A DNA stretch of 64,000 bases from an uncultured Gammaproteobacteria bacterium (GTDB lineage: Bacteria > Patescibacteriota > Microgenomatia > JALYQM01), in NCBI GenBank assembly GCA_964535655.1, contig CAZHTP010000003.1, positions 131,396 to 195,395 of the forward strand, read 5' to 3'. Below the pieces are notes generated by a model. It searched no databases and was not told where the DNA came from. It saw nothing but the letters and a program-made list of their open reading frames with translations. Every line of letters begins with the position of its first letter. The first letter of the stretch is position 1. Below are positions 21,614 through 38,430 of the stretch, in pieces. A program made the translations under genes and the position numbers.

Positions 21614-22962
21614 AAAGCTTTCTTACGCATTGAAAAATAGAATTGTATTGTTAGGAGCATGTATATTACTACACAACTGCCTAATACTAGTATAGAGACA
21701 GTAATTAACTGCGTAATGGTTTGATGAAAGAAGAAAATTCCAACGGCTTGAATAATTGCGGCGACCATAACCATCCCGGCTGTTTTGTTTTTTCCAACAG
21801 ATAAGAAGAAAAATGAAAAAACATTAAGCAGTGCGTAAAATAATTGCGAAATACTAAACATGCCTACATAGGGAACTGCATCAATGAATTTCTGGCCAAA
21901 GAGCATGGATATAACTAGTTTCGGGAACAGTATGTATATGGTTGTCACAAACCCTGCCCCAGCAGTCACTACTCCTAATACAACTGCAAATAATGGTAGA
22001 AAATTTTTCTTCTGAGCAACTCTTTGTACAATTTGAGGAAACATTACAATAACCAATGGTTGCGTAAAGAAAGGGATAACTTTACAAGTTATGGCTAAAG
22101 ATGAATATAAGCCTGCTTCAAATGGTGATAAGAAGGATTTAGCTAAAATTACATCGACTTGTACAAGGCTTCCCAATCCCCAAGCATTTAAGGTTGAAAA
22201 CAAAGCAAAGACTAACAATTCTCTATCAATTTTGAACGATTTGGTGGGATCAACGTAGGGCACGAAAAGATATCGCAAGAAATTTTTAGACTTTTTGATG
22301 AACTGGCTCGAATTTAGGCTTGTTTGATGGACGATGTTATCGATTGCCACCCATGATAGAGTTATAACCGCAAAAGATGAAAGTATCATTGCGATTAATA
22401 CGCCATTAACTCTTAACCCTAGCATGATAAGGGTTATTGCAAGAATGATTCTTGATGTTACCAAAATTCCAGCATATACACTGGCTGTGGCAAATCGTTG
22501 TAAGCCGGTAAATGCTCCATTTAATAGTGTTTGAGGAAATGTTGTTGCAAAGATAATACTTATTAAGATTAGCGACCAGAAATCTTTTAGTTTTAAATTA
22601 CTTAGTATCTGATTTTGAAATAAAACAAGAATACACAAAAAAATCGCTGAAAATATCAGTGAATACTTTGTCATTATTATGAGGAGTGGCTTTATTTTTT
22701 GTAACTCACCTTTTGATGAATATAGTGCTACATATTTTGTAACCAGCGTTGCTAAAACATTTGATGGTACTGAGGATAAATATAAAATCGAGACGAGTGC
22801 TAAATATTCACCATACCCCACTACTCCTAACATCCTGCCAATAATGACATTAAAGATATAACTAAGAACATTTACGCCGAACGCTCCCACGAATGCGACT
22901 GCGCTCCCCTGAAAAAAAGGGTGTTTAACAATTTTAACTACCGATTCTTTGGAGAGATTCAT
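21610..22962 (-). CDS. Wzx-like polysaccharide/oligosaccharide flippase (MOP/MATE-like superfamily)
   Basis: 450 aa, ~12-14 hydrophobic helices, polysaccharide biosynthesis protein-like; sits within the GT operon. Confidence 0.65.
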   Translation of the reverse strand: MNLSKESVVKIVKHPFFQGSAVAFVGAFGVNVLSYIFNVIIGRMLGVVGYGEYLALVSILYLSSVPSNVLATLVTKYVALYSSKGELQKIKPLLIIMTKYSLIFSAIFLCILVLFQNQILSNLKLKDFWSLILISIIFATTFPQTLLNGAFTGLQRFATASVYAGILVTSRIILAITLIMLGLRVNGVLIAMILSSFAVITLSWVAIDNIVHQTSLNSSQFIKKSKNFLRYLFVPYVDPTKSFKIDRELLVFALFSTLNAWGLGSLVQVDVILAKSFLSPFEAGLYSSLAITCKVIPFFTQPLVIVMFPQIVQRVAQKKNFLPLFAVVLGVVTAGAGFVTTIYILFPKLVISMLFGQKFIDAVPYVGMFSISQLFYALLNVFSFFFLSVGKNKTAGMVMVAAIIQAVGIFFFHQTITQLITVSILVLGSCVVIYMLLTIQFYFSMRKKAL

Positions 22963-24041: not shown

Positions 24042-24977
24042 ATGAAAGATACTAAAGATATTGGGTTAACGGTTGCCCTTGCTGTTTTCAATGAAGAAAA
24101 TACTCTACAGGAATGCCTTGAATCCATAAAATCGATTGCAGATGAAATTGTAATTATAGATGGCGGTAGCACGGATAATACTATTGATATAGCTAAATCT
24201 TTTAATGCTGTTATTATTCAAACAGATAATCCAGCTGTTTTTCATATAAACAAGCAGAAATCTCTTGGCGCTTCGCACGGAAAATGGATTCTTCAACTGG
24301 ATGCTGATGAGCGAGTTTCACCTGAGTTGGCAAAAGAGATCCGTAAGATTGTTGAGAGTAGTGATTCTGAACTTGAGAATCATGATGTAGATGCAACGCG
24401 ATACGAAATGCTTAAGAAGCATATGGAGCTCCTTGCTGCTCGGGAAGGGGCGATCGGAACAGATGAAGGCCCGATTGTTGCCTTTTTTATTCCGCGTAAA
24501 AATTATTTCCTGGGCAGGTTTTTAATGCATGGTGGAGTATACCCGGATGGAACAATACGGCTGGTACGAAACGGAAAAGCAAAATACGGATTAAAAGATG
24601 TTCATGATCAAATGATCATTGATGGACAAGTTTCATTTTTGTCTAACAATTTAATTCACATGGCTGATCCTACTTTTGAACGGTATTTGACTCGATCAAA
24701 TAGATATACCGGCTTACAAGCAAAGCAATGGTTGGAGAATGTTGGTAAGAACGGCACTCATGGAGTGCTCGGTCCCAATGCTTCAGCTCCAGGAACTTCA
24801 TTTTTATCCATTTTTAAATATATGGTTGTTTTGCCTAAAATAACATTTTTATCTCTCTATTTCCGTCACCGGGGATACCGAGATGGCTTCCCTGGTTTTA
24901 TATGGGCGCTTTACTCGGCTTTGCATATTGCTTCCAGTTATGTTAAGTATTGGGAAATGCGAAGACGCGTTAACTAG
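24042..24977 (+). CDS. family 2 glycosyltransferase
   Basis: IGLTVALAVFNEENTLQECLESIKSIADEIVIIDGGSTDNT...QLDADE. Confidence 0.8.
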   Translation: MKDTKDIGLTVALAVFNEENTLQECLESIKSIADEIVIIDGGSTDNTIDIAKSFNAVIIQTDNPAVFHINKQKSLGASHGKWILQLDADERVSPELAKEIRKIVESSDSELENHDVDATRYEMLKKHMELLAAREGAIGTDEGPIVAFFIPRKNYFLGRFLMHGGVYPDGTIRLVRNGKAKYGLKDVHDQMIIDGQVSFLSNNLIHMADPTFERYLTRSNRYTGLQAKQWLENVGKNGTHGVLGPNASAPGTSFLSIFKYMVVLPKITFLSLYFRHRGYRDGFPGFIWALYSALHIASSYVKYWEMRRRVN

Positions 24978-25136: not shown

Positions 25137-25688
25137 TTATTGCTTCATTACACCGGTTGAGGCTTTAGGTGCAGCTGACATCATAGCGCTACCCTTGGTG
25201 GCAGTTGACCAATCTAAATTTCCGCAGGAAACATATGTCTTTAGATCGGAACCTGATTTATGGATATTAATTGCTAAGGCCCCCATATCCTTTAAGGCAC
25301 TAACAGTAACCTCTGAAGGTAAGGTTGTTTCAGACTTTCCATTAACAACGTTTGTTAGCGTGTATTTAACATCACCGGGAGTTGGACATGAACCAGTGTG
25401 AATATGGGCTGGCTCTGCTGTAGTGACACCTCCTTCGACATTGAGGGTAACTTTGATTTTTCCATCGACCTCTTCTAGCGTTGCGGTTCCATCTTGTTTG
25501 GAGCTGTTAAGTGCTGCTAGCTTGAATGATAACGGACCAATAGTTAGCGTCTCTGTAGGTGATGCTTCGACCATTGCTGAGGCTACTGGCGTCGTTGAAG
25601 TAACAGGCTGATCGGTACTGGTTGCTTTTTTTTGTGTGCATGCTGTAAGAAGTAAAACTGCAATTGCGATTAGGGCAATCTTTTTCAT
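25137..25688 (-). CDS. CHRD-domain-like lipoprotein
   Basis: MKKIALIAIAVLLLTAC lipobox. AEPAHIHTGSCPTPGD resembles the AHIHxG motif of CHRD domains. Thr/Ser-rich linker. Confidence 0.5.
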   Translation of the reverse strand: MKKIALIAIAVLLLTACTQKKATSTDQPVTSTTPVASAMVEASPTETLTIGPLSFKLAALNSSKQDGTATLEEVDGKIKVTLNVEGGVTTAEPAHIHTGSCPTPGDVKYTLTNVVNGKSETTLPSEVTVSALKDMGALAINIHKSGSDLKTYVSCGNLDWSTATKGSAMMSAAPKASTGVMKQ

Positions 25689-25754: not shown

Positions 25755-27266
25755 CTATACTTTTTTTACTTCATGATAGGCACGATCGGTGTTAATATTT
25801 TCGAGATCATACTTTTCTCCCATAATATTTCTTGCGGCATAAAGCCCCATTTGAATGGAATGATCGGAATTATTATATTTAAAGGTTCCATTGCGGCCGA
25901 TAATTTGAAGATTCTTAAATCCCTTTAAATATTCTTTTATTTTTACAACTTTTTCTTTATAACCAATATCATAGACTGGGTATTCTTTTGGGACACGATG
26001 AACATATGAACCGACAATATTTTCTTTCTCAAAATAATGGAATTCATTAATATAATTAGTGGCAACCATTTCAACCAATTCATCGTCAGTCTTGTTCCAG
26101 GTTGTGTCGCCTTCTTGGCATGCTAACTCAAAAACGATGGACGTTGTACCTGCTGGGGATAGTCCTTCTGTCCAGGAATCCATCTCCATTAGACGGACAA
26201 AAATAAGTTTTGAATCCTGGGTATAAACCCAATTATCTGGTGTGAAGTGAGCTTTATTTATCATTAAGGTAACTTGCACTTCGTCTCGGAAAGACAGGCC
26301 GTGGGCCGCTTCTGTAACATCTTTGGGAGCTGGTGGATCCATTCTGATTACTAGTTCTGTAATAGGTATACTGGAGATGCAGTACTCCGGCTGAATTCTT
26401 GTCACACTATTTTCCTCGTTGTGGTTACTTGGAATAGCTTTATTACTTATTGTGATATTTTTATCGTGAATGTCACTTGCGTCTGTTGATGTAAGCGTGA
26501 TCGCAGATATGATTCTTTCTCCATTACTTTCTGACCATTCAATTTTTGTAACATCTTTTGATAATAAAATATTATTATCGGGTTTTGCGAGAATATCTTC
26601 TTCCATTTTTTCTGCTATTCGCCCAAACCCAGTTTTAGGGTATATAAATTTATCTATTAAACTAATCACATTTTTTGATTTAACAATTGAATCCTTAACG
26701 GCAGACCAAATGGAAAGTCCTTTCGATCTTTGCGATGCCCAATCTCCGGAGAGCTCAGTCGTTTTTCTTCCCCATAATTTTTCAGTGTAGAAATGGAAAA
26801 ATTCGTAATATAGTTTATATCCAAATTGATTAATGTACGCATCGGCGATGTTATTGACTTCTTTTTTGCGTAATCCGGTTTTTAATTGAATGCGTATCCA
26901 GGCATAGGATGAAATGGCCCAGATTGCGTTAAAAATCCCAAGATTACCTAACGCATTAAGCGGTTTTAAGGGGTAATAATAATATTTTCCTTTGTAATAA
27001 ATTCTAGTTAATCTGTTAACGTCGACCAGCTCTTCGTTTAGCAAATCTTTAAGCCAATTATTAATTTCATCAGATTTGGTAAACCAGCGATGCGGGCCTG
27101 AGTCAAATGAATAGCCGTCTTTTTTTAAAGTAACGGCTAACCCTCCAACATAGGGATTCTTTTCAGCTAAAATGACTTTTTTGTTGGACTTTTTTGTTAC
27201 TTCGTGCCCTGCAGCGAGTCCGGCCAGACCTGCTCCTAATATCAATACATCAGTTTTTTGTTCCAT
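25755..27266 (-). CDS. FAD-dependent oxidoreductase (amine oxidase / UDP-galactopyranose mutase-like Rossmann fold)
   Basis: VLILGAGLAGLAAGHEV dinucleotide-binding motif at the N-terminus; 503 aa. Confidence 0.6.
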   Translation of the reverse strand: MEQKTDVLILGAGLAGLAAGHEVTKKSNKKVILAEKNPYVGGLAVTLKKDGYSFDSGPHRWFTKSDEINNWLKDLLNEELVDVNRLTRIYYKGKYYYYPLKPLNALGNLGIFNAIWAISSYAWIRIQLKTGLRKKEVNNIADAYINQFGYKLYYEFFHFYTEKLWGRKTTELSGDWASQRSKGLSIWSAVKDSIVKSKNVISLIDKFIYPKTGFGRIAEKMEEDILAKPDNNILLSKDVTKIEWSESNGERIISAITLTSTDASDIHDKNITISNKAIPSNHNEENSVTRIQPEYCISSIPITELVIRMDPPAPKDVTEAAHGLSFRDEVQVTLMINKAHFTPDNWVYTQDSKLIFVRLMEMDSWTEGLSPAGTTSIVFELACQEGDTTWNKTDDELVEMVATNYINEFHYFEKENIVGSYVHRVPKEYPVYDIGYKEKVVKIKEYLKGFKNLQIIGRNGTFKYNNSDHSIQMGLYAARNIMGEKYDLENINTDRAYHEVKKV

Positions 27267-27311: not shown

Positions 27312-28928
27312 TTAGTATTGCGAGCCGATAATTCTAAAGACATCGGTCTTATTATCTGGTGTCCTGATTGTTTTAATACCTGGTTCACCTTCAGGAATTT
27401 CTAAATTTCCTCCTACTAACAAGGTTTTGTGAAGCAACCGATCCTGGGACCAATTTACCTTGCGAAATTCATATTTATCAAAGCCTTTATTGTACTCTCC
27501 GTTGTTTACCCATATTTTTGGATCATATTTTTTATAGTATAGAAAATAAATGTATGGTTGATCGTACGCAGGAGTAATAATCACTTTATCGTAATGAGGT
27601 TCAAGCATTGATACCGTTTTAACTAACTCACGATAACCCGTTTGCCATTCAAGCGCATATTCAAAATCCATTTGGGTGTAATACTGATTAAAATAATATA
27701 TGAGATTTATGCTATAGAGAATCAGGATTACAGCGATGGGATACACCATTTGTATTTTTTTATTTCGAACGTATTGAACTAATGCAAAGATTCCCACAGC
27801 AACAGCAATCTGCGGTATTGGTAAAAAAAGAATGCTGCGGATTGCGTGTGGAGTGCCTGTTGATATTGCTGCCGGAATTGGCGCAATGACCGCCCAAAAG
27901 AAATAGATAAATTTACTACTAAATTTGGCACGAATAAGCGCCATGATGCCGATAAGAATTAGCGGAAACTCAACTAAAAAGAATAAGCCAACATCGGGAG
28001 CATGGTGGCGTGCAACTACATCTCCTTTCAGGAACATATTGATCGGATTGAAATGATTTATATATCCTTCTGTAAATTCTTTAAGGTATTCAACTCGCCT
28101 GTTGTGTAAAAATGAATCCCAACGATTTAGTTGGTTATCCTGCCGTTCATATTCTAGCGGTCTTAATATTTCGGTGGACGGATTAAATATGCTTACTGAA
28201 GAGAATCTCTCGGCTGCTGTTCCGTGAAAGAGAACTACTACAAGCGGAAGAAGTATTATTATGCCAATCAAGGTTGGAATAATTATTTGTTTGGACCGCC
28301 TGAAAATTAATTTATGATATCTTAGCGCGATTCCTATAAGTACCAGTGGTACGATGAGACGCGCTGCGTGATAGGCATATAAAGAAGTGGCAAGAAGTAT
28401 TGCAGCTAAAGTAGCATCTCTCACTTTCTCAGATGAAAGCCACTTTAGTACGAAATACATTCCCCAGGTGACAAAAAAGACGGCAATATTTCCTTCAAAA
28501 GCAGCCCGGGAAAATTGCAGATGCCAAGGCGAAATGGCAAAAACTGACATTGAGAGTAACGCGATAGTTTCTTCGTGTGGAGAGAAACTCGATTTTCTAA
28601 AGAATTCGTAGGTAAGGAAATATACACCGAGAACTGTTAATGAACCAAAGAAAGCCGCAGGGAATCGAGTGCCGAATTCATTTAAGCCAAAAATTGCGGT
28701 GGGAATGATGTCTAGATAGGTATAGGCAGGCGGCTTGTAATCGTTGAATGAACGAATCGATAACGGCCAAGAATTGCCATACTCATCCGCTCCAGTTTGT
28801 AATAGTGTGTAGGCGTTGTAGCCAAGCGAGGCTTCGTCCCAATCAAGAGATGCGGGCACTGCCCCGAGTTTGTAAAAGCGCAGGAAAATGGCTAAGATGA
28901 AGATTGCACAGAATAAGTACTTTTTCAC
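27312..28928 (-). CDS. GT-C fold membrane glycosyltransferase, PMT_2 (GT39/GT83, ArnT/PMT-like) family, paralog 1
   Basis: FLRFYKLGAVPASLDWDEASLGYNAYTLLQTGADEYG (loop-1 DE motif). About 11 TM helices; C-terminal soluble domain. Confidence 0.75.
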   Translation of the reverse strand: MKKYLFCAIFILAIFLRFYKLGAVPASLDWDEASLGYNAYTLLQTGADEYGNSWPLSIRSFNDYKPPAYTYLDIIPTAIFGLNEFGTRFPAAFFGSLTVLGVYFLTYEFFRKSSFSPHEETIALLSMSVFAISPWHLQFSRAAFEGNIAVFFVTWGMYFVLKWLSSEKVRDATLAAILLATSLYAYHAARLIVPLVLIGIALRYHKLIFRRSKQIIIPTLIGIIILLPLVVVLFHGTAAERFSSVSIFNPSTEILRPLEYERQDNQLNRWDSFLHNRRVEYLKEFTEGYINHFNPINMFLKGDVVARHHAPDVGLFFLVEFPLILIGIMALIRAKFSSKFIYFFWAVIAPIPAAISTGTPHAIRSILFLPIPQIAVAVGIFALVQYVRNKKIQMVYPIAVILILYSINLIYYFNQYYTQMDFEYALEWQTGYRELVKTVSMLEPHYDKVIITPAYDQPYIYFLYYKKYDPKIWVNNGEYNKGFDKYEFRKVNWSQDRLLHKTLLVGGNLEIPEGEPGIKTIRTPDNKTDVFRIIGSQY

Positions 28929-30868
28929 TTGTTTTGATTATACCGTATTTGATAGAGGAACAATCCCTTTTTTTCTAATTTGTCCGCAATAAAATTATCA
29001 CTATTTTTACAATCTATTTGTTTTTCGCTTAAAAGGTATTTTGCATCCAATTTCTGCATGGTTTTTGCCGCCTGGTCTATCTGACATTGATCAGTGTAAG
29101 AATAAAGTTGGTCCAGATTTGCGAGGCGCGCTTTTTCTATGCCTCCGGCATCAAAAGGGGTACTGCTTTTTTCGTAATACACACTTCGGGCGCTTAAAGC
29201 AGACACATACGGTGCATGCGGCCAAATAATCTTTCCGCCTGGATCACGATTTGGAAGAAATACGATAAATTGGGATGGATCTACTTTATGATTAATTTCG
29301 TTAAGAATATCTAATTGTGGATATGAAACAACAACTTCCGGTTCCTTTAGGCCATTATTGCTGAAATCCTGCGCATACCCGACGAGTCCAGGAACTAACG
29401 CAATACATATAATAATTACTCTGACCAAGATGGATCTGTTTTTCTCGAGGAAGCTACCGACAACTATTCCTGTCGGTATTGATAATAAGGCTACGGCAAG
29501 CCATAAAAATTGACCGATATCAAACACTCCCTGGGATTGAATGAAGAAAGAAGGGATGAGAAGTGCTGCGACGGTAGAACAGAATAGTAGAATTGCCGCG
29601 CTACTTTGATATAGTTTTTTCTTGTGTAATTCATTTATTCCTAGAAGTAAAAGCACTCGACTTCCGATACTTAATGCCCAAAATAAAGTGACTGCCTGCA
29701 GGTACAACAGTAAAAGTCGCGCAAGATTGTTGTGTTCAAGAAAGATTGTTTTTTTGATATACCAGTGCCAACTATCAAATTTGTCCTGAGCTATGAAATG
29801 CTCATAATAAAGCCCTGGCGCCCAGACAAGACTTCCCTGCCCCCAATTTGATGGGAGGTAGGTGATTGCAGTGATAAGGAAGGCTGTTACTGTTACTAAA
29901 AATAGATTATATGTACTCACTATTTTTCTCGTACAAACAAGCTGCCAAAGAATGAGTGTTCCCATCCCTATTAGTCCTATAATCCCGGCATAGACTTTGG
30001 TTTGAGCAATCACTCCTATGAGCAATCCAGCGATTACTGCTTTTCGTCGATTAGATTCTTCAGATAGTACTACTGCCCAACCAGTGAGTAAAAAACTAAT
30101 GGCGAGAAGCCAGGAGGGATTATGAATTAGCCCAAGTGGGTCGACCACTCCGGTATATAAAAGCACACTATCACTTATGAGAGGAATAAAACTTCGACCA
30201 AAATAGGCCACTACTAAAACCCATAGTTTTTGTTTCTGACTAATTCTGAGGATACCGCCCAATAAGTAGAATGAAGCGCCATAAAGAAGAGATGTAAATA
30301 GGGCGAAATGACGGAATAATAAATCTATTGGGTTAAAGCCAAAAAACAATGAGAAACGACTTAGGAGGAACGGGTAAAAGTAATGATATCCGCGCATTTC
30401 GATTCCAGCTAACCCAGGCCTGGTTGGTGGAAAATGGTTTGTCATATTTTGAATGTAGGCTAAGAGAATAAACCCATCAACACTGTTTGTACCAAAAAAT
30501 TGAAGTCCTTTTGATGAGTAACTGCCGCTTTGAAAATCGAGAAATAGAAAAGCTAGCGATCCGAGCAGAATTATAAAAAGAGATTTACGATCGAGTGTAA
30601 TAAAGTTAATTTTTACTCGGTAGAGTCTGTATTTTAAGAAAATGAGTAACGTAATAAAAAGTAGTACTAATGGCAATTTTGTAACACCTGCCCACGCACT
30701 GAGATATGAAACTAATGTAAATACTGCAACTCCGAAAACCCATGAAAGAATAAACGATGTGCATTCTGAATATTTGACTCTTAATACCCATATTAGTAAT
30801 TTTCCGGGAATATAGAAACTGAGGTAAGCGAAGAAAAAGAATTGAAGAAGCTGTAGAAAAAAAAGCAT
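28925..30868 (-). CDS. large polytopic membrane protein (647 aa, >12 TM, C-terminal soluble domain); possibly another GT-C-like enzyme or polymerase
   Basis: Hydrophobicity pattern; embedded in and translationally overlapping the GT-C array; no motif recognised. Confidence 0.4.
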   Translation of the reverse strand: MLFFLQLLQFFFFAYLSFYIPGKLLIWVLRVKYSECTSFILSWVFGVAVFTLVSYLSAWAGVTKLPLVLLFITLLIFLKYRLYRVKINFITLDRKSLFIILLGSLAFLFLDFQSGSYSSKGLQFFGTNSVDGFILLAYIQNMTNHFPPTRPGLAGIEMRGYHYFYPFLLSRFSLFFGFNPIDLLFRHFALFTSLLYGASFYLLGGILRISQKQKLWVLVVAYFGRSFIPLISDSVLLYTGVVDPLGLIHNPSWLLAISFLLTGWAVVLSEESNRRKAVIAGLLIGVIAQTKVYAGIIGLIGMGTLILWQLVCTRKIVSTYNLFLVTVTAFLITAITYLPSNWGQGSLVWAPGLYYEHFIAQDKFDSWHWYIKKTIFLEHNNLARLLLLYLQAVTLFWALSIGSRVLLLLGINELHKKKLYQSSAAILLFCSTVAALLIPSFFIQSQGVFDIGQFLWLAVALLSIPTGIVVGSFLEKNRSILVRVIIICIALVPGLVGYAQDFSNNGLKEPEVVVSYPQLDILNEINHKVDPSQFIVFLPNRDPGGKIIWPHAPYVSALSARSVYYEKSSTPFDAGGIEKARLANLDQLYSYTDQCQIDQAAKTMQKLDAKYLLSEKQIDCKNSDNFIADKLEKKGLFLYQIRYNQNK

Positions 30869-30929
30869 TGTATGATTTACCCTTATTATTCCCTTACAAC
30901 TTGAAAAGTTATGAAAGTTGTGGATGTTA

Positions 30930-31439
30930 TTATATCTTTTTGTAACTATATTTACTTAAAATTGGCTCAAGATCTGCATAGGTTTTACCCTGAACCTGGG
31001 CAATAAATTTTTCCTGAGTTACGTCGACGAGACAAAAATCGGGCATTACAAATGTGTTTTTCTCTCGTTCGGTGGGAAATTCGCAATCGATCGAGACGAG
31101 CCCTTCTAGGGCGTCTTGGAACATATCTAATTCCATATTTAACCCATTATAGTTGTAAAAATATCTTATTTTGTGTAATTCTATACCTGGTAACTGCATT
31201 AGAACATTAAATTCATCCTCGTTAAGTTTGATAGTTTCTTCGATTTGAACTGAGGCATCTTCAGGATATTGTTGAGATTTTTTTGTTAGTTCGAATTTAT
31301 CGTCTTTCTTACGCAATCTTAATTTATGCGGAGAGGTGGTTTTGATGTATTTATCGTGAATATTTGTACGTTCGCATTCCTCGAGATTTTTAGGAAGATA
31401 TTTAGCCAAGTACGTTACTTCGATTTCAAGTTCGGACAT
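30930..31439 (-). CDS. CYTH-domain (triphosphate tunnel metalloenzyme) family protein
   Basis: N-terminal ELEIEVTY (ExE motif). Mid-protein basic residues. C-terminal LVSIDCEF resembling the terminal ExE motif of CYTH/CyaB-like proteins. Confidence 0.45.
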   Translation of the reverse strand: MSELEIEVTYLAKYLPKNLEECERTNIHDKYIKTTSPHKLRLRKKDDKFELTKKSQQYPEDASVQIEETIKLNEDEFNVLMQLPGIELHKIRYFYNYNGLNMELDMFQDALEGLVSIDCEFPTEREKNTFVMPDFCLVDVTQEKFIAQVQGKTYADLEPILSKYSYKKI

Positions 31440-31450
31440 ATTTTTAATCT

Positions 31451-33172
31451 TTAACTTTTAACTATATAGATAATTGGTTTACCTGATAAATCTAACATTT
31501 TTTCATCTGGTATAAGTTTTCCAGGAAAATCACTTGGTGATCCGATCATTAATGAATGAGGAATTTTACGCTGTTTTTCGTAATCGAAATTGTGGAATTT
31601 AATTTTTCCGACTCTGTTTTGGGTTTCTGAAAAGCCACCGCTCACTGTGCCCCCCTGAGAAAGATACTCTCGCGGGGAATAATTGCCATACCATAAGAAC
31701 CAGAGATATGACCAATCCAAGGAGAGTGACACCGTGATGCTATCGTAATTTTCTTTTTTGCTTTCAATAATTTGAACCGCTTCTTTTCTTCTATAGAGCC
31801 AGTACGCACTAAACTCCTTCGGAAGAAGGATAGTGTAAGAAATGAGATAGTGGATGACTGAAAATCCCATGACGATAAAAATTAAAAGAAATGAAACTTT
31901 AGGCCAGGTCCATTTAAGAAACTTATTAAACTTGTCATCACCGGTTTTTGCGGGAGGCCTGGTGTATGACTTAAGATCGTATCTTTGAATTTCTTTAATT
32001 ACAACCCACAAGCCTATTCCTGTTACTAATGAGAGAACCGGCAATAACAGTAAGGCACGGATTGAATGTGGTACTTGCCAGGTTAAGGCCGCTGGAATGG
32101 GAGCGATAAAACCTAGCCATAACGGAAGAAATGCATTTAATTGTTTTCTGTTGCGAATTAGGAACGTTATTCCGACTAGAATCAACGGTAATTGCCAAAC
32201 ATAAAGAAGCCCAAAACCTGGCACCTGGTGACGAGGTAGATCAGCAAAAACAAATAAGAAACTATAATTAAAATGCGATAAATAATTGGCCGTGACACTT
32301 TGCGCTATGGGAATACGGAAATTATGCACTTTTGAACTAAGCCATCCGTCACCGTTATCAAAATCTTCTTTAGCAAGCTTATTATTTCGAGCAAAAATTT
32401 CAATAACTTTCTTGCCTAAAATAGTAGTGGCGTTGTAGCGGGCTAGCCCGTCTCCCTGGTACATCTGTAGAAACAAAGGTATACACAGAAGTAACGCAAT
32501 AAACCCTCCGGCAATTATTTGCTTTTTAGCAGTTAGAAGTTCTCTTCCATAGGAAATCAGGTATCCTAGCAGGAAAAGTGGAATTAGGAGCCGAGCATTC
32601 GCATACGAATATAAGGCAAGTGTAAAGGCTACTACTGAGTACATTAGAGTTGTAAAATTTCTTTGTTGACTCCACTTTAATAGAAATAATATACCGGCTA
32701 ATTCCCAAAACAAAGCGATATTTGCTTCAAAAGCTACTCTGGAAAAATGGATATGCCAAGGGGAGATAGTTAGGATAGCGGCTGCAAATAGCGAAATATT
32801 GGCAATACGATTTTTCCAGATGGGAATGGTTGTTGTTGTGCGTAACATGTGTTGGCAGAGCAAATAAAATATCGGAATGGTTAACACTCCAAAAAAAGCC
32901 GAAGTAAACCTTATGGCAAATTCATTTTTTCCAAAAAGAAAAAGTGCTGCTGAGGTTAAATAAATATATAGTGGGGATTTATAATCATCGAATGAACGGA
33001 AAGTTAAGGGGAGATATGTCCCATATTCGTCTTTCCCAGTTTGTAGAATTGAATAGGCGTTCCAGCCAATTGCGACTTCATCCCAGTTTAGAGAAGGGGG
33101 ATTGCTTCCTAAGGCAATAAAACGAAAGAGCGCACCTAAAATAATGAGTATAATTAATAGCTTTAGACGCAT
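31451..33172 (-). CDS. GT-C membrane glycosyltransferase, PMT_2 family, paralog 2
   Basis: LFRFIALGSNPPSLNWDEVAIGWNAYSILQTGKDEYG. Confidence 0.75.
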   Translation of the reverse strand: MRLKLLIILIILGALFRFIALGSNPPSLNWDEVAIGWNAYSILQTGKDEYGTYLPLTFRSFDDYKSPLYIYLTSAALFLFGKNEFAIRFTSAFFGVLTIPIFYLLCQHMLRTTTTIPIWKNRIANISLFAAAILTISPWHIHFSRVAFEANIALFWELAGILFLLKWSQQRNFTTLMYSVVAFTLALYSYANARLLIPLFLLGYLISYGRELLTAKKQIIAGGFIALLLCIPLFLQMYQGDGLARYNATTILGKKVIEIFARNNKLAKEDFDNGDGWLSSKVHNFRIPIAQSVTANYLSHFNYSFLFVFADLPRHQVPGFGLLYVWQLPLILVGITFLIRNRKQLNAFLPLWLGFIAPIPAALTWQVPHSIRALLLLPVLSLVTGIGLWVVIKEIQRYDLKSYTRPPAKTGDDKFNKFLKWTWPKVSFLLIFIVMGFSVIHYLISYTILLPKEFSAYWLYRRKEAVQIIESKKENYDSITVSLSLDWSYLWFLWYGNYSPREYLSQGGTVSGGFSETQNRVGKIKFHNFDYEKQRKIPHSLMIGSPSDFPGKLIPDEKMLDLSGKPIIYIVKS

Positions 33173-33174
33173 AG

Positions 33175-34971
33175 TTACTTTACAAAAGGATTACCATTTT
33201 CATCGAGGTATCCCAACTCAATTAACGCATCAGCGCCGGTAGGAACTTTGCTTAGGATAAAAACCGGCTCGCCATTTAATCGGTTAATTGTCTCTTTGAA
33301 ATATTTTTTTGAAGTAAGTTCAGAAGGTGTCCCTACTAATAATACTTTCTCCCCTGCTTGCTGTTTGGAAATTTCGTTTCGCCAGTTAATTCCGCGAAAC
33401 TCGAATTTATTAAATCCGTCAACCGTGATGAATCCAAACCCAGTTTCGTCGGTGTGTGCTTTTCGTTCTTTTTGAAATAATGCTGGAGGATACTTTAAGT
33501 AAAATAGTGTTTCAATATACGGGCGTCCCTGACCATCAGTTATAATGATACGGTCGTACTGATCTTTTACCTTAGCTACTTCACTGATCATCTCTTTATA
33601 ACCATATTGCCACTCCTGAGAAGTCCAGTTTGAGTAATGAACATAATAATTATGTAAATAGTAATAGACTGTGGAAGTAAGTATTACTCCAGAAAAAATA
33701 ACCACTAAAAGTGAGCTTACTGTAAAATTACTCACTTTTTTATTGAGCACAGGCCAACCCCACTGCATTTTATTTAAACGATTGATTACATAAATGAAGG
33801 CATAGGCTTCAATGATTTGAAAAGTTGGTAAAATATTTAGACTTCGCAGTGCATGGGGAGTTTCCCTTGCAAAAGCCGCTGGAACTGGTGCTAAAAACAT
33901 CCAACCAAGAATAACTAGCTGTTCTGGCTTACGCCGGGAAAGGAATAGATACAGACCAATAAGTAAGAAAGGTAGCTCAATAATATACAATTCTCCTACA
34001 TCCTGGAGAGAAAAGCGCGGGTTTATATCTCCCGAAATAAATAAGAATTTTCCGGAAAAATGCTGAAAATAACCGTCAATCCAATTTTGAGCATAAATCA
34101 TGCGGCGATTATTTAAAATTTTAGCCCACCAGGTGTTACCTAAGTGCGCAATCCTTTCGTTGGACAGTTCGACAGGAAGAGGATCAGAAAAGATATTAAC
34201 CTCTTTGTATCGTAATTGGCCCTCGTGTGATGCTACATGTGGTACCAGAGGCAAAAGAATTGCCAAGGATATCAAGCTGGCAACAAGAAGTTTTAGCGTG
34301 CTTTTTTTATCATTAAATAACTGCTTACGGTAGATTATTGCCAGAAGAATGACCATGAGGGGTGTAAAGACGCGATTAGAATTGAAAGTGTAAAAGGTTG
34401 ATACAAACGAGATACCCGAAAGGACTAATAATAACGCTTTGTAATTTTCATTTTCAAGCGACTTAAAGAATAAGTAGATTCCCAGTAGTACTAGAAATAA
34501 CGCTACGTTAGCTTCATAGGCAACGCGAGATATCTGGGTATGCCACGGTGAGATAGCAAAGAGAAAGGCTGCAAGTAAAGCAATCCATTCAATTGTATTT
34601 TTGTGTAAGAATGTGGGCTCGTGACTGGCTAGCCTTTTAAGTAGTTGCAGTGTTATTAGGTAGGCTACTATAACTGAAAGCGACCCGAAAAAAGCTGAAG
34701 GAAACCGGGTAGTCCATTCGTTCAGCCCGAAGAGTTTAATCATTGGCACTTCGGAGTAAATATACACTGGAGGCTTAAAGTCTCCAAATGAACGAAAATA
34801 CTGGATTGGCATGAAGGCGCCTTCTTCATCCCGTGCGGTTTCGGAGATTGAATAGGCATTATAGCCAAGGGCTACCTCGTCCCAATACAGGGATGGAGGA
34901 TTAATTCCAAGATGATAAAACCTTAAAACGAAGGCGATACCAATAATTATGATTAAGAGAATTTTTTTCAT
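33175..34971 (-). CDS. GT-C membrane glycosyltransferase, PMT_2 family, paralog 3
   Basis: VLRFYHLGINPPSLYWDEVALGYNAYSISETARDEEG. Confidence 0.75.
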   Translation of the reverse strand: MKKILLIIIIGIAFVLRFYHLGINPPSLYWDEVALGYNAYSISETARDEEGAFMPIQYFRSFGDFKPPVYIYSEVPMIKLFGLNEWTTRFPSAFFGSLSVIVAYLITLQLLKRLASHEPTFLHKNTIEWIALLAAFLFAISPWHTQISRVAYEANVALFLVLLGIYLFFKSLENENYKALLLVLSGISFVSTFYTFNSNRVFTPLMVILLAIIYRKQLFNDKKSTLKLLVASLISLAILLPLVPHVASHEGQLRYKEVNIFSDPLPVELSNERIAHLGNTWWAKILNNRRMIYAQNWIDGYFQHFSGKFLFISGDINPRFSLQDVGELYIIELPFLLIGLYLFLSRRKPEQLVILGWMFLAPVPAAFARETPHALRSLNILPTFQIIEAYAFIYVINRLNKMQWGWPVLNKKVSNFTVSSLLVVIFSGVILTSTVYYYLHNYYVHYSNWTSQEWQYGYKEMISEVAKVKDQYDRIIITDGQGRPYIETLFYLKYPPALFQKERKAHTDETGFGFITVDGFNKFEFRGINWRNEISKQQAGEKVLLVGTPSELTSKKYFKETINRLNGEPVFILSKVPTGADALIELGYLDENGNPFVK

Positions 34972-36620
34972 TTTATTATTTTAAATAATATTCTTTGGTC
35001 ATCTTTTGCTAGAATAGTTTGATTACCAAATGCTGCCTCGGGTGAACCTATAACCAAGGAACTAGGTGGGAGCTTTAAGTCCTCAAAAGATTTATTTTTT
35101 GTATTTATTTCTCCAAAATAATACTTGCCACATTGTACCATCTCAGAACCGGCGATTAAGACTTTTGATTGCGAGCAGTGTTGATACTCTGCTGGGTCGA
35201 GTTTAGAATAAAAAGCATAATACATTTCGGTTTTGCCGTAATACCTGGTTATAAAAATGTGATCAAAGTTGTTTTCTTCGTTTCTTGCATAATTTATTGC
35301 TTCTTTTTGCATGCCATCGTACCAATAATTACCATACACTGGGTAGACATATATATAACGCACTAACCAATTTGAAAATGAGAACGCAAATAATATAAAT
35401 AACATTCTAATTGCTAAAGATTCTGATTTAGCTTTCTTAAAATAATCCAGAAAAAATACTATTCCATATGAAGCAAAGATCATAGGGATAGGTAAAAGCG
35501 CGATACTTCTCAATCCATAGGACTTTCCTACTAAAGCTGTAGGAAAAATTGAGATAAGAATCCACGCTGAGAGAAATATAAACAGTTTTCTATTCCTTTT
35601 GAAACAAACTAAAAGCCCCAATAAGAAAAAAGGTGCTTCGAGTATGTAAAACATTCCATGATTTCCAATGGCATAACGCAATGAACTGTCTCCCGCTACA
35701 TACCAGAATGAAGCCGAAAGATTATCTCCATAAAATTCGAGAAAATCGCGAAGCCAAATATTGGGTTTGTTAAATAAAAGAGAGTTGAGCGCCGGTGGTG
35801 CCAGGGACTGATTACGCATCATAATTACCCGTTCACTCACTTTTGGATCTGAAAATATATTAATCTTGGCAAAACGAGCCTGGCCATTAGAAAATATTGC
35901 CAAATACGCAATAGGTACAGACAGGAGCGCGAACAAGAATATGTATCTTACTGTGAAACGGATGTATTTTTTTGAGTCGAATTTTTTTGTTATCCAAAAT
36001 CCCCAGCTCCATAGCAATACAATGAGCATCGGAACAAAAAGCTTGGTTGTGTAATAGGTATACATCGCGAGAACAAATGAAAAGTTAGACAGTAAAAAAT
36101 GTCGCCATTTTTCAGTTTTGAGCCAGCAAAGGAAAAAATATACTCCTGCTAAGCCAAATGTAAGGGCCATATTAGCTTCATACCCTCCCCTACTTACTAA
36201 GATATGCCAGGGAGAAATTGCTAACAACGCTGCTGCTATTAATGCTAGGTTCTCGCTTCTGATATCGTTTTCTTTGTTCAGGTCAAAAAATGTTGCAAGT
36301 TGTTTTACTATCGCATAGGTAAGATACACTGCAGCGATGCCACTCAGTGCTGACGGCAAGCGAACTGCATAGGCCGATACGCCAAAGACTCTTTCAAATA
36401 TTAGTACGATATAAATATATGCGGGGTTTTTTTGATCTCCCCATGACTCAAACTGAATTGGTAATAGTTTAGAAAATTCATCTTTGCCGGTTTTAAGTAC
36501 CGAATAAGCATTATAACCGATGGAGATTTCGTCGCCATAGAGTGAGGGCATATGACTACCAAGAAAGAGTATCCTGAGTAGTGCGGCAAAAATAATAATT
36601 GTAGTTAGCCATTTATTCAT
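34968..36620 (-). CDS. GT-C membrane glycosyltransferase, PMT_2 family, paralog 4
   Basis: LLRILFLGSHMPSLYGDEISIGYNAYSVLKTGKDEFS. Confidence 0.7.
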   Translation of the reverse strand: MNKWLTTIIIFAALLRILFLGSHMPSLYGDEISIGYNAYSVLKTGKDEFSKLLPIQFESWGDQKNPAYIYIVLIFERVFGVSAYAVRLPSALSGIAAVYLTYAIVKQLATFFDLNKENDIRSENLALIAAALLAISPWHILVSRGGYEANMALTFGLAGVYFFLCWLKTEKWRHFLLSNFSFVLAMYTYYTTKLFVPMLIVLLWSWGFWITKKFDSKKYIRFTVRYIFLFALLSVPIAYLAIFSNGQARFAKINIFSDPKVSERVIMMRNQSLAPPALNSLLFNKPNIWLRDFLEFYGDNLSASFWYVAGDSSLRYAIGNHGMFYILEAPFFLLGLLVCFKRNRKLFIFLSAWILISIFPTALVGKSYGLRSIALLPIPMIFASYGIVFFLDYFKKAKSESLAIRMLFILFAFSFSNWLVRYIYVYPVYGNYWYDGMQKEAINYARNEENNFDHIFITRYYGKTEMYYAFYSKLDPAEYQHCSQSKVLIAGSEMVQCGKYYFGEINTKNKSFEDLKLPPSSLVIGSPEAAFGNQTILAKDDQRILFKIIK

Positions 36621-36693
36621 AAAAATGTTTGCTGGTAAGCCGTTGTAGCCTTAGTATACCATTCCAATCTCTTCAATGATAAACTCAACTTAA

Positions 36694-38430
36694 ATGAATT
36701 TACCGTTACGGCGATTGATACTTGTAAGTATTCTTGCTTCTATTGCATGTCGTTTTTTGTTTCTGGATCGATTCCCGGCAGGAATCTCCCATGACGAAGT
36801 AGAATATGTCTTAAGTAGTGCTTCTTACGCGTTCACCGGTACTGATTTATCGGGTATAGGATTCCCTTTAAGTTTATTTAAAACTGAAACGCATGGGCAT
36901 ATTAGCCCAATACCTCCATTATTTCTGGCTCCTTATTTCTACTTTATTCCAGTGAATCAATTTTCCGCTCGCTTGCCTTATATATTAATTTCTTTACTTA
37001 CTATTTTCGTTCTTTATACGTTGTGTGTATTACTTTTTAAAAGTTCGTCACTGGCTCTGGTTGTAACATTTATCTTTACTGTTTCGCCTTGGGGATTTTA
37101 TTTATCACGCTGGGCTGCAGATACTCCTTTTGCTCTTCTCTTCTTTTTATGGGGAATTTATTTCTTTCTCTCTGAAAATAAATGGAAATTTTCTTCATCC
37201 GTTCTTTTATTTATACTGGGATTTTTTTCCTACAATGGAGCTAAACTATTATTCTTTCCATTACTACTTTTTCTATTGTTTTATCGGTGGAAAATTAACC
37301 GAGCAGGATGGTTTAGTCGTACCATTTTTTTAAAGCTTATTGGCGCGGTCTCGATCTTTTTCTTTGGATATTTTGTAATCAGTTATCTTATACCGGGATC
37401 AATTGCCCAGGAACGCGACTCAGAAATTGTTTTTTTGAACTCAAAATTACTTCAAGAAAAAGTTAATTATCTGCGAGAGCAGGAACTAGAATTTCCACTA
37501 AACTATTTATTTATAAATAAATTTACTGTAGCTCTTCAGATTATGCTGGAAAAATATGTAAGCGCTTTTTCCGCAATTTCGTTATTTGCTACTGGTGACC
37601 CAGATATAGTGTACCGAACTGACCTGATTGGATTATTCCTTCCTTTTGAATTAGTTACGATTTTTGTTGGTATGTATTATCTACGGAGCCGGTATCGTCG
37701 CGAGGCATTCTTGCTTATGGGTCTCACATTGCTCGCTCCCCTTGCCACTACATTAAGTGGCAATTCCACTTCAATTCTGCAGCGTTCGTTTTTGCTTTTA
37801 CCGTTGCTTTCAATTTATAGTGGGGCTGGTATTTACTGCAGTTATCTTTTTGCTTCGCGCTCTATTAACTTCCGCATTGTTTCACTCGTTTGGGGAAGTA
37901 TTATTGGTTTATTTTTTATAACTTTTTTACATTTTTATTTCTTTCAGTGGCCGATGTTATCTTTGGAGGGATTTACCTTACAAGGTAGATTGGGAGCTGA
38001 GTATTTACATAGATTTCCAAAGAATAGTGAGATTAAAGTTATAGCAACAAATAGTCGGGGCGCTTATTTACAATATATATTCTTTTCAGAACCTGCTACC
38101 CAAAGGAAATTCTTTCAAAACCGGTTTGATGATTTCTTACATAAAAATTATTCAATCGAAACTTTACTTTTTACCGATCATTGTCCTGATTTTTCTGAAC
38201 CCGAGTTTTCATATTTAATTCAGCGCGAAGCATCACCGTGTAAGAGAATTGGCTTTCCGAATGCAGAAATCGTGAGCCAACGTGATTTAAAAATGTTATT
38301 GCAAATTCATTCCGATAAAGTTTGTGTTCGTCTGGCTTTGAATGTTACTAAAGCGCGTCCACGTTTATGGGATTTTGACTTTTTAGCTATGAGCAATGAG
38401 AGATTCTGCAGAACCTGGTTAAGTAATTAA
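36694..38430 (+). CDS. GT-C membrane glycosyltransferase, PMT_2 family, divergent paralog 5
   Basis: CRFLFLDRFPAGISHDEVEYVLSSASYAFTGTDLSG. Same architecture, but the most diverged member and on the opposite strand. Confidence 0.6.
   Translation: MNLPLRRLILVSILASIACRFLFLDRFPAGISHDEVEYVLSSASYAFTGTDLSGIGFPLSLFKTETHGHISPIPPLFLAPYFYFIPVNQFSARLPYILISLLTIFVLYTLCVLLFKSSSLALVVTFIFTVSPWGFYLSRWAADTPFALLFFLWGIYFFLSENKWKFSSSVLLFILGFFSYNGAKLLFFPLLLFLLFYRWKINRAGWFSRTIFLKLIGAVSIFFFGYFVISYLIPGSIAQERDSEIVFLNSKLLQEKVNYLREQELEFPLNYLFINKFTVALQIMLEKYVSAFSAISLFATGDPDIVYRTDLIGLFLPFELVTIFVGMYYLRSRYRREAFLLMGLTLLAPLATTLSGNSTSILQRSFLLLPLLSIYSGAGIYCSYLFASRSINFRIVSLVWGSIIGLFFITFLHFYFFQWPMLSLEGFTLQGRLGAEYLHRFPKNSEIKVIATNSRGAYLQYIFFSEPATQRKFFQNRFDDFLHKNYSIETLLFTDHCPDFSEPEFSYLIQREASPCKRIGFPNAEIVSQRDLKMLLQIHSDKVCVRLALNVTKARPRLWDFDFLAMSNERFCRTWLSN

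Follow-up and report, generated by a model that had tools for sequence, protein, structure and literature searches.

What does a row of strongly diverged membrane glycosyltransferase genes do in a bacterium of the candidate phyla radiation? The question is raised by a 64,000-nt stretch of DNA from an uncultured member of the Microgenomates, analysed here as a whole and referred to as the window, in which diverged genes for ArnT/PMT-type membrane glycosyltransferases stand in a row, joined by the gene of one unannotated GT-C-fold enzyme (28925..30868). Our literature search found no publication that deals with these genes in the candidate phyla radiation. An earlier note on this DNA had described five paralogs at 27312-38430, and the coordinates of all five open reading frames proved exact. 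The count of five holds for this segment, but the window as a whole carries seven PMT-like genes, and six GT-C-fold proteins are encoded inside 27312-38430 when the 647-aa neighbour is included. The row and the two further paralogs comprise:

27312..28928, minus strand: PMT/PMT_2-type GT-C paralog, 538 aa (Pfam PMT 42.6 bits, PMT_2 31.2 bits)
28925..30868, minus strand: orphan-family GT-C-fold membrane protein, 647 aa, with a 4-nt overlap with the next PMT-like gene
30930..31439, minus strand: CYTH/TTM-like cytoplasmic protein, 169 aa, with a profile match to NE1496
31451..33172, minus strand: PMT_2-type GT-C paralog, 573 aa (Pfam PMT_2 39.4 bits, PMT 27.0 bits)
33175..34971, minus strand: PMT/PMT_2-type GT-C paralog, 598 aa, the structure-modelled paralog
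34968..36620, minus strand: PMT_2-type GT-C paralog, 550 aa, opening the minus-strand unit (Pfam PMT_2 41.4 bits, cut-off 26.1)
36694..38430, plus strand: divergent PMT_2-type paralog, 578 aa (Pfam PMT_2 30.4 bits)
61399..63090, minus strand: sixth PMT_2-type paralog, 563 aa (Pfam PMT_2 30.2 bits)
63078..64000, minus strand: 3' part of a seventh PMT_2-type paralog, its frame open up to the window edge

The four minus-strand paralogs of the row are arranged head to tail, spaced by 4-nt overlaps or gaps of 2-61 nt, and a 73-nt spacer separates them from the divergently transcribed fifth. For the sixth, the gene caller sets the start at 63081, which gives 560 aa, and the called gene was located on a Logan contig; the seventh is present at full length on contig L085 (512 aa, with a PMT_2 match). 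Just past the window end lie a YfhO-family GT-C gene and a FAD_binding_4/ALO oxidase gene.

We consider it very probable that the locus encodes GT-C transferases of the ArnT/PMT type (CAZy GT83/GT39-like), as far as the enzyme class and the general mechanism are concerned. All five genes assigned to this class in the earlier note exceed the Pfam gathering threshold for PMT_2 (PF13231) and/or PMT (PF02366), with E-values of 1e-5 to 3e-12, as does 61399-63090. The paralogs are indeed highly diverged, their mutual homology being detected by BLASTP at 22-35% identity (E 1e-13 to 1e-104; 22-28% for 36694..38430 against the others), and they share 9-20% identity with solved GT-C enzymes, with Foldseek TM-scores around 0.3-0.6. 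For three of them, other species carry orthologs at 52-73% identity and in conserved order, compared with at most 35% between paralogs, which bears out the suggestion that they are not recent duplicates; judged from these identities, the paralogs are ancient. Orthologs of 34968..36620 (52-66% identity) occupy the same array position in the relatives' loci L005-L007, where 31451..33172 also has orthologs (57-65%), and 27312..28928 represents the commonest subtype in relatives, being the best match for 138 ORFs in 72 loci.

The catalytic signature was then compared residue by residue, with numbering (D31, E32, K66, R149, R254, R376) according to the 598-aa protein 33175..34971. The loop-1 motif that all five paralogs had been said to share is found in full, with substitutions, in four of them, whereas 36694-38430 retains only DE and TGxD of it. 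D31/E32, the DE of the loop that the earlier note took as the hallmark of lipid-linked-sugar-dependent enzymes, do not vary among the six full-length paralogs of the window or the 39 family members aligned, and their position right after TM1 provides the acidic residues of the first external loop that the GT-C class A fold requires. R149, R254 and R376 are invariant in the family alignment as well, and K66 (within KPP) is 97% conserved. The DE has its equivalents in the active-site pairs D55/E56 of ArnT and D77/E78 of Pmt1, and the EL1 lysine of ArnT contacts the lipid phosphate (PMC7801869). K66 aligns with this lysine in the HMM alignment, and would correspond to K85 on the assumption that the chain numbering is offset by 3. 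Among the individual paralogs, 34968..36620 retains DE, K66, SPW..SR and R376, and the loop motif of 61399..63090 reads NPPGFYSDEASYAYNAYS..TGKDEHG. The divergent 36694-38430 keeps D/E, SPW..SR, R254 and R376; PPSL, GYNAYS, the second E (E49) and the KPP lysine are missing from its alignment, with Ser at the position of K66.

The predicted model of the 598-aa paralog displays about 12-13 membrane helices, arranged as in GT-C class A enzymes, followed by a C-terminal alpha/beta domain, so that the soluble C-terminal domain postulated earlier is seen in the model. The statement that these domains differ between paralogs was not borne out: they align, with the shared motifs YD.I.IT and Y..LFY.KY.P and an invariant F, and by this alignment they are homologous rather than different folds. 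They are nevertheless the least conserved part of the proteins, their mean pairwise identity of 21% falling below that of the membrane core (26%) and of TM1 plus loop 1 (41%). Taken together, the agreement of family HMMs, predicted fold, DE and ArnT-aligned lysine supports assignment of the paralogs to the lipid-phosphate-sugar-dependent GT39/GT83-type enzymes. Since the paralogs appear to be ancient and have kept the catalytic core while the external loops and the C-terminal domain differ, the acceptor, the linkage or the donor sugar most likely varies from one paralog to another.

Which known enzymes come closest? ArnT (GT83; undecaprenyl-phosphate-L-Ara4N:lipid A transferase; 5ezm/5f15) shares with the paralogs the DE after TM1, the HMM-aligned EL1 lysine, the Pfam PMT_2 match, and a set of membrane helices with an extracytoplasmic alpha/beta domain C-terminal to them. 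It is the sole solved structure found by sequence (E 0.0045), and many homologs are named 'ArnT-like' by JGI, yet we regard it as highly improbable that the genes are ArnT orthologs adding aminoarabinose to lipid A or another lipid. The identity to ArnT is 12%, seven paralogs are present here, the equivalog NF009784 of NCBIfam was matched by one paralog only and at 16.5 bits (cut-off 567), and window scans found no ArnA, ArnB or ArnD-type genes; orthology to ArnT was rejected on the missed cut-off and the lack of Arn genes in the window. To our knowledge, candidate-phyla-radiation bacteria lack lipid A synthesis. The yeast Pmt1, Pmt2 and Pmt4 and actinobacterial Pmt (GT39), which have in common with the paralogs the Pfam PMT match, the DE (D77/E78 in Pmt1) and the occurrence of several paralogs per genome, are set apart by the MIR domain in a luminal loop. 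Pfam scans detected no MIR domain in the paralogs, and the model shows helical loops and the C-terminal alpha/beta domain instead, so we rejected a eukaryote-type protein O-mannosyltransferase of GT39. In further contrast to the GT39 enzymes, the donor here would be a bacterial polyprenyl phosphate sugar, and protein acceptors are putative.

A third relative raises the possibility that the paralogs, or some of them, translocate (scramble) polyprenyl-phosphate sugars rather than acting as transferases. Agl23 (TIGR03663), an archaeal PMT_2-like protein, tops the NCBIfam matches for four of the five paralogs (26.9-45.4 bits) and for the seventh (53.3 bits), the alignment starting at the N-terminus and spanning the first external loop. 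Agl23 has been proposed to be a hexose-P-dolichol flippase, and once purified it translocates M5GN2-PP-Dol in liposomes (PMC11182771); the missing loop lysine of 36694-38430 would also fit a translocator. However, these scores lie far under the family cut-off of 126.25 bits, for which reason membership in Agl23/TIGR03663 was rejected, and unlike the paralogs, Agl23 is about 435 aa long and devoid of the C-terminal domain. Given also that 39 sequences show full or almost full conservation of the catalytic-type DE, Lys and Arg, and that seven flippases are difficult to rationalise, we consider a translocator function improbable and return to transferases as the preferred reading.

For these transferases, we infer catalysis, donor class, topology and acceptor as follows. 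A cytoplasmic GT2 of the Dpm1/AglJ type would place a sugar on polyprenyl phosphate, and the lipid-linked sugar would be brought across the cytoplasmic membrane to its outer side. There, each paralog would bind it through the conserved Lys/Arg, which would hold the phosphate. The invariant Asp-Glu, located where the first external loop begins, would activate an extracytoplasmic acceptor, and the paralog would pass the sugar on to it. The following genes of the window bear on this scheme and on the possible acceptors:

10970..12928, minus strand: exported protein, 652 aa, whose large domain is fused elsewhere to the orphan GT-C domain (P0233)
20837..21613, minus strand: soluble GT2, 258 aa, candidate polyprenyl-phosphate sugar synthase with long NCBIfam alignments
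21610..22962, minus strand: Wzx-like (Polysacc_synt) flippase, 450 aa (Pfam Polysacc_synt 35.5 bits), with about 13 hydrophobic segments
24042..24977, plus strand: GT2, 311 aa, in relatives the most consistently array-linked GT2
25137..25688, minus strand: lipoprotein with lipobox LLTAC, S/T/P-rich linker and CHRD domain (Pfam CHRD 24.2 bits)
25755..27266, minus strand: FAD/NAD-binding oxidoreductase, 503 aa (NCBIfam NF005548 439 bits, cut-off 389)

The GT2 at 20837..21613, in which no TM segment was predicted, had been proposed as the donor synthase. Its longest NCBIfam alignments fit this proposal, namely those with PgfS (71.1 bits, cut-off 500), ArnC (51.7, 529), PpgS (43.9, 370), AglJ (38.9, 325) and a dolichyl-phosphate hexose transferase, but all scores fall far under the cut-offs, and true orthologs occur near arrays in only 4 of 80 related loci. 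Assignment to the Dpm1/AglJ/ArnC type was therefore rejected, no equivalog cut-off being reached; because only such synthases align past residue 150, a role as donor synthase for the arrays is plausible at most. A comparable pairing of a GT2 with large polytopic GT-C-type proteins is known from Streptococcus mutans Pgf (PgfS with PgfM1/PgfM2). PgfS is the top NCBIfam match of 20837-21613, and the YfhO-type protein past the window end weakly matches PgfM1, although both likenesses are far under the equivalog cut-offs (71 against 500; 28 against 1400) and PgfM1 is YfhO-type, whereas the window paralogs are PMT_2-type. Orthologs of 24042..24977 at 150 bits or more are found in 49 of the 80 loci, those listed being on the array's strand and mostly downstream; only its generic N-terminal GT2 domain is recognised by Pfam and NCBIfam. 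An AglJ/Dpm1-like GT2 of about 240 aa, matching AglJ best in NCBIfam (107-129 bits over almost the whole length), is encoded within 10 kb of the array in 48/80 loci, and no close ortholog of it was found in the window. The oxidoreductase 25755..27266, which adjoins the last PMT-like gene downstream, shows a weak match to UDP-galactopyranose mutase (61.9 bits, cut-off 303.75) and has orthologs in 4/80 loci.

The comparison set behind these counts consists of 80 related loci from Levy-, Gottesman- and Chisholmbacteria genomes. At least two paralogs are present in 79 of them (range 2-7, same-strand), 268 of the 275 paralog ORFs lie on the same strand, and the 598-aa type directly precedes another paralog in 70/80 genomes. 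Tandem arrays are thus the rule in Microgenomates, and for this lineage the earlier note errs in calling so dense a GT-C set unusual. As such rows are normal here, the cell-surface glycosylation locus of the window, though real, is a fairly ordinary one.

The orphan GT-C family, on the other hand, is unannotated. The 'second giant polytopic membrane protein' of the earlier note (28925..30868) is polytopic, but its predicted model (AF2 pLDDT 90.1, pTM 0.92) identifies it as a GT-C-fold protein itself. It has no sequence similarity to the PMT-like paralogs, no Pfam match even at E<=10 and no NCBIfam match, and the Pfam-less family counts 2,475 cluster representatives at E<=1e-3. Its invariant residues are D131, P147, P148, H162, K291, Y293, Q444 and Q453. 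The top 14 Foldseek matches are STT3, AglB, PglB, AftA and AftD (E 8e-8 to 2e-3, probability 1.00), at 10-13% identity and TM-scores of 0.42-0.51. Like these enzymes, the orphan is polytopic with a C-terminal soluble domain, whereas its first long external loop comes after helix 4 rather than helix 1. We rejected an STT3/PglB/AglB oligosaccharyltransferase, as the likeness is at fold level only and no Pfam STT3 match appeared at E<=10; with neither an STT3 nor an AftA match in Pfam, a WWDYG-type motif is not expected. Elsewhere, the orphan domain is fused to a Wzx-like flippase domain in P0279, and in P0233 the C-terminal half matches 28925-30868 (E 1e-24) while residues 29-451 match 10970..12928 (33% identity over 428 aa, E 3e-65, BLASTP). 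Because of these two fusions, the orphan probably belongs to a Wzx-type polysaccharide route and is not simply an eighth paralog.

As to the acceptor, we favour S/T/P-rich linkers of exported proteins and an envelope glycopolymer about equally. The array may, tentatively, serve protein O-glycosylation in the manner of actinobacterial Pmt or streptococcal Pgf, targeting Ser/Thr in S/T/P-rich linkers nearby. Such stretches occur in three exported window proteins, the 944-aa FN3/CBM60 protein (20/30 residues) and the lipoproteins 25137-25688 (16/30, positions 23-52) and 42126-42773 (16/30). The first of these lipoproteins, a candidate acceptor, closes the same-strand unit as its last gene; moreover, the Pfam PMT matches exceed the cut-off, and among solved structures the identity is highest for Pmt1, Pmt2 and Pmt4 (16-20%). 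The absence of MIR in the Pfam scans speaks against this reading, one sugar-to-Ser/Thr step hardly needs seven paralogs, and the suggested co-occurrence of arrays with particular surface proteins was not observed, the candidate acceptors being without homologs in the 80 related loci.

The array may instead be a line of enzymes that assemble an envelope glycopolymer or glycolipid outside the cytoplasmic membrane, a reading that we likewise hold to be possible though doubtful. Arrays of up to seven genes and a paralog order conserved across species speak for it. Like the Emb, Aft and Mpt enzymes of mycobacterial arabinogalactan/LAM or rhizobial RgtA-D, each paralog would contribute a single residue or linkage, with a polyprenyl-phosphate sugar as donor, and the orphan would act as a ligase, polymerase or oligosaccharyltransferase-like enzyme on a Wzx-flipped lipid-linked glycan. 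The large cytoplasmic GT2/GT4/methyltransferase/Wzx cluster at 700-24172, the fusion of the orphan domain to a Wzx-like flippase (P0279) and its closeness to STT3, AglB, PglB and AftA, and the YfhO-family GT-C and FAD_binding_4/ALO oxidase past the window end are consistent with this. Nonetheless, these organisms have no known glycopolymer, window scans found neither an initiating phosphoglycosyltransferase nor Wzy, and the DprE1-like match is weak and partial (54.9 bits, cut-off 500). More speculatively still, conserved and translationally coupled array neighbours might form hetero-oligomers like Pmt1-Pmt2, yeast PMT enzymes being described as acting as paralog dimers, and might, together with the orphan family, the fused 450-aa external domain and Wzx, build a Microgenomates-specific envelope glycopolymer on the outer side of the membrane from polyprenyl-phosphate sugars. 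We deem this unlikely, but if true, it would be to monoderm bacteria of the candidate phyla radiation what the arabinogalactan/LAM machinery is to mycobacteria.

The remaining gene of the row, 30930..31439, had been called CYTH, and this call stands in part. Similarity over the whole domain to a known CYTH structure was found, in that a profile of three orthologs matches Nitrosomonas europaea NE1496 (2fbl/3typ) with E 1.5e-7 (residues 5-145 against 5-142), a protein that we take to be a CYTH triphosphatase. However, no Pfam match, CYTH included, was obtained even at E<=10, and the N-terminal ExExK is absent, the site reading EIEVT with a Thr that is invariant in the three orthologs where NE1496 has Lys. 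Homologs are present in 2 of the 80 related loci, and in relatives they rarely stand beside PMT-like genes.

Five ArnT/PMT-type GT-C glycosyltransferase genes had been proposed between 27312 and 38430, and all five ORFs were recovered with exactly these boundaries. For the window as a whole this count proved too low, as two further PMT_2 genes lie towards its end, and the corrected annotation of the locus comprises seven PMT_2-type genes and one orphan GT-C gene:

36694-38430, plus strand, PMT-like paralog
34968-36620, minus strand, PMT-like paralog, 550 aa
33175-34971, minus strand, PMT-like paralog, 598 aa
31451-33172, minus strand, PMT-like paralog, 573 aa
30930-31439, minus strand, 169-aa protein
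28925-30868, minus strand, orphan GT-C, 647 aa
27312-28928, minus strand, PMT-like paralog
25755-27266, minus strand, flavoprotein (NCBIfam NF005548, 439 bits vs cut-off 389, a model named only 'hypothetical protein')
25137-25688, minus strand, lipoprotein with an S/T/P-rich linker
60824-61402, minus strand, pentapeptide-repeat protein, 192 aa
61399-63090, minus strand, sixth PMT_2 gene
63078-64000, minus strand, 3' part of the seventh PMT_2 gene, its frame open to the window edge (512 aa on the longer Logan contig L085)

Within the minus-strand run from 34968-36620 to 27312-28928, the genes overlap by 4 nt or are separated by gaps of 2-61 nt, and a 73-nt spacer lies between 34968-36620 and the divergent 36694-38430. 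A scan for consensus promoters and terminators returned no more sites than expected from shuffled sequence and is therefore uninformative on operon structure. A gap of 45 nt separates the last PMT-like gene from the flavoprotein gene downstream of it, whose product shows a weak UDP-galactopyranose mutase match and could have a bearing on the identity of the donor sugar. The sixth PMT_2 gene shares 4 nt at its 3' end with the pentapeptide-repeat gene, and the two are therefore probably co-transcribed; the gene caller's start for this PMT_2 gene lies three residues further in. The idea that the 301-aa ORF at 63078-63983 is a half-size paralog was rejected, since the frame continues to the end of the window and the complete gene encodes 512 aa. 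Upstream of this gene, beyond the window end (L085 1-10004), are a 318-aa GT2, an 883-aa YfhO-family GT-C, a GT4 and an FAD_binding_4/ALO oxidase, the last with a weak partial DprE1 match (54.9 bits vs cut-off 500).

Assignment of the paralogs to the ArnT/PMT-type enzyme class is well supported by Pfam, by fold matches and by motif alignment. All five ORFs of the array carry PMT_2 and/or PMT above the Pfam gathering threshold, and BLASTP between paralogs gave 22-35% identity with E values from 1e-13 to 1e-104. The acidic loop residues on which the earlier assignment hinged are retained: aligned with MAFFT, the paralogs show an invariant Asp-Glu pair following the first helix (D31/E32 in the 598-aa protein), and D48, SPW..SR, R254, N288, Y301 and R376 likewise do not vary. 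The loop-1 motif said to be shared by all five was found with small substitutions in four of them, while 36694-38430 retains only DE and TGxD and has a Ser in place of the loop lysine. The C-terminal domains, which had been thought to differ, are in fact mutually alignable with common motifs; this domain is the least conserved region, its mean identity being 21%, whereas TM1 plus loop 1 reaches 41%. Narrower family membership was not supported, as the paralogs contain no MIR domain and score well under the cut-offs of the ArnT equivalog (16.5 bits vs 567) and of TIGR03663/Agl23 (27-53 bits vs 126). In public annotation these proteins already go by the names 'glycosyltransferase family 39 protein', 'phospholipid carrier-dependent glycosyltransferase' or 'ArnT-like'.

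The 598-aa paralog, modelled from a 39-sequence alignment (pLDDT 92.4, pTM 0.92), is predicted to have about 12 membrane helices and a C-terminal alpha/beta domain, with helices also in the external loop region. In a Foldseek search of the PDB, the first 37 matches of this model were all GT-C-fold proteins, among them AglB, ArnT, STT3, PglB, Pmt4, ALG12, ALG9, Pmt1/2, EmbC, AftA, PIG-U, DPY19, AftD and ALG3. When the family profile was searched against PDB sequences, ArnT was the only match, a weak one, and the PMT structures were not matched. The EL1 lysine of ArnT aligns with the KPP lysine of the PMT-like family, and K85 of ArnT touches the lipid phosphate (PMC7801869).

We then asked how such genes are arranged in relatives. 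A scan of one genome per species yielded 446 encoded relatives; the best 80 loci, each of at most 21 kb, were retained, and their six-frame ORFs were searched with the family HMM. At least two PMT-like ORFs were present in 79 of these best 80 loci (median 3, maximum 7), 268 of the 275 PMT-like ORFs share the strand of their array, and in 70 of the best 80 another paralog directly follows the ortholog of the 598-aa protein. The earlier view that so dense a GT-C set is unusual therefore has to be reversed: density is the rule, and the arrays are a trait of the lineage that does not set this genome apart. In three other species the 550-, 598- and 573-aa trio recurs with its gene order kept, at 52-73% identity, so the duplications are old, in agreement with the claim that they are not recent. 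The genes of the window (GC content 33-41%) have close homologs in MAGs that carry the labels Candidatus Levybacteria, Gottesmanbacteria, Chisholmbacteria or 'Patescibacteria group', and identical proteins are present on contigs from run SRR8893623 and on a 232-kb NCBI contig. This places the window in an uncultured member of the Microgenomates, within the candidate phyla radiation (CPR). Although the closest matches of their genes are in Levy-, Gottesman- and Chisholmbacteria, many related assemblies, including those holding loci L005 and L007, are titled 'uncultured Gammaproteobacteria bacterium'; this taxonomy of third-party assemblies looks wrong or like a placeholder.

The second giant polytopic protein interleaved with the paralogs (647 aa) has no Pfam or NCBIfam match. 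Its model (pLDDT 90.1, pTM 0.92) matches STT3, AglB, PglB, AftA and AftD with probability 1.00, which makes it a sixth GT-C-fold protein inside 27312-38430. When the PMT-like alignment was compared, profile against profile, with the 647-aa protein, the orphan-family alignment and the 652-aa exported protein listed below, no sequence similarity emerged; the PMT-like family and the orphan protein are linked by fold alone. A profile search of 1.84 billion representatives returned 2,475 orphan-family members at E<=1e-3 and 1,032 at E<=1e-30. Some of these are fusions, which direct attention to two other genes of the window:

10970-12928, minus strand, exported protein, 652 aa, no Pfam or NCBIfam match
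21610-22962, Wzx-like gene

Fusions of about 1,150 aa, exemplified by P0233 from another organism, consist of an N-terminal exported domain followed by the orphan GT-C domain (E 1e-24); in P0233 the former is 33% identical to the large domain of the 652-aa protein over 428 aa (E 3e-65). A longer fusion, P0279 (1,639 aa), carries an extra Wzx-like Polysacc_synt_3 flippase domain at its front. These architectures connect 28925-30868 in function with 10970-12928 and with a Wzx-type route. Among the best 80 of the 446 loci, the orphan gene is present in 22, with a PMT-like gene immediately following it in 7 and an AglJ-like GT2 directly adjoining in 8. This sizeable unannotated GT-C family, with about 2,500 cluster representatives, offers, through its fusion links, concrete partners to test. 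The tail of the 652-aa protein, two TM segments and a C-terminal domain, also bears a weak likeness to the orphan-family tail (hhalign E 0.009).

The 169-aa protein had been described as a CYTH protein. Similarity to the Nitrosomonas NE1496 structure (E about 1e-4; with a three-ortholog profile, E 1.5e-7 over nearly the whole length) indicates that it is CYTH-like, but it has no Pfam match even at E<=10, and EIEVT stands in place of the N-terminal ExExK. Because its homologs adjoin arrays in only 2 of the best 80 loci, we regard it as a local passenger outside any conserved system.

All window proteins were matched against the same best 80 of 446 loci, and the GT2 genes that actually travel with the arrays have now been identified. 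The most consistent non-GT-C companion is the GT2 at 24042-24977 (plus strand), with orthologs of at least 150 bits in 49 of the 80 loci; among the matches listed, all lie on the strand of the array and mostly downstream of it. Only its N-terminal GT2 domain is recognised, and its C-terminal YRDGFPGF segment may resemble WaaE/KdtX-type GT2 enzymes. In 48 of the best 80 loci another GT2, about 240 aa long, is encoded within 10 kb of the arrays, and its top NCBIfam match, nearly full length, is the dolichyl-phosphate hexose synthase AglJ (107-129 bits). For the proposed donor synthase at 20837-21613, the only NCBIfam models whose alignments reach beyond residue 150 are those of polyprenyl-phosphate sugar synthases; the scores, however, fall far under the cut-offs, and true orthologs were found in 4 of the best 80 loci. 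The remaining GT2 genes whose products end in hydrophobic segments, at 700-1755, 1776-2789, 3627-4508 and 14325-15380, look like generic exopolysaccharide-type enzymes rather than polyprenyl-phosphate sugar synthases. Nor are the genes for the CYTH-like protein, the flavoprotein and the S/T-rich lipoprotein regarded as conserved partners, since they occur in 2, 4 and 0 of the best 80 loci.

With family, fold, motif conservation, duplication age and linkage to Dpm1/AglJ-like GT2 genes in relatives all observed, the best-supported reading is a set of putative polyprenyl-phosphate-sugar-dependent transferases, with catalysis, topology, donor and acceptor predicted: the paralogs would act on the external face of the membrane and differ in acceptor or linkage specificity. 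Two uses of such a set appear about equally likely. One is protein O-glycosylation, for which three exported proteins with S/T/P-rich linkers are plausible candidate acceptors:

25137-25688, minus strand, and 42126-42773, plus strand, S/T/P-linker lipoproteins, one with a CHRD domain
16846-19680, minus strand, 944-aa FN3 and CBM60 protein, 20 S/T/P in 30 residues (769-798)

One of the three ends the array's same-strand unit; however, none is conserved beside arrays in the best 80 of 446 loci. The other is stepwise assembly of an envelope glycopolymer. The order of the paralogs is conserved, a large cluster of cytoplasmic glycosyltransferase and Wzx genes occupies 700-24172, and the orphan GT-C occurs in fusions, all of which is consistent with this use. 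A minority possibility is that some paralogs translocate lipid-linked sugars as Agl23 does, which moves M5GN2-PP-Dol across liposomes (PMC11182771); for most paralogs the invariant catalytic-type residues speak against this.

These are enzymes of a known kind, in a lineage where tandem arrays are normal, and current understanding is not overturned; more original is the unannotated GT-C family, together with its fusion partners. A literature search on GT-C, PMT or GT39 in CPR, Patescibacteria or Microgenomates found no relevant paper. The genomes of CPR bacteria are very small, and these organisms rely on contact with other cells. That as many as seven or more large GT-C enzymes are nevertheless encoded next to one another in this lineage suggests a central place for surface glycosylation in its biology.

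Two further genes of the window deserve mention. Within the cytoplasmic glycosyltransferase cluster, 7053-10103 (minus strand) encodes a 1,016-aa protein of synthase-like architecture, in which about nine hydrophobic segments come after a GT2 domain at the N-terminus. At 51712-56838 (minus strand) lies a 1,708-aa bacterial alpha-2-macroglobulin with MG2, A2M_BRD, A2M, TED and bMG10 domains, in which a Hint/intein-like segment (about residues 818-947; PT-HINT, Vint, Hom_end_hint and Intein_splicing matches) separates the bait region from the A2M domain.
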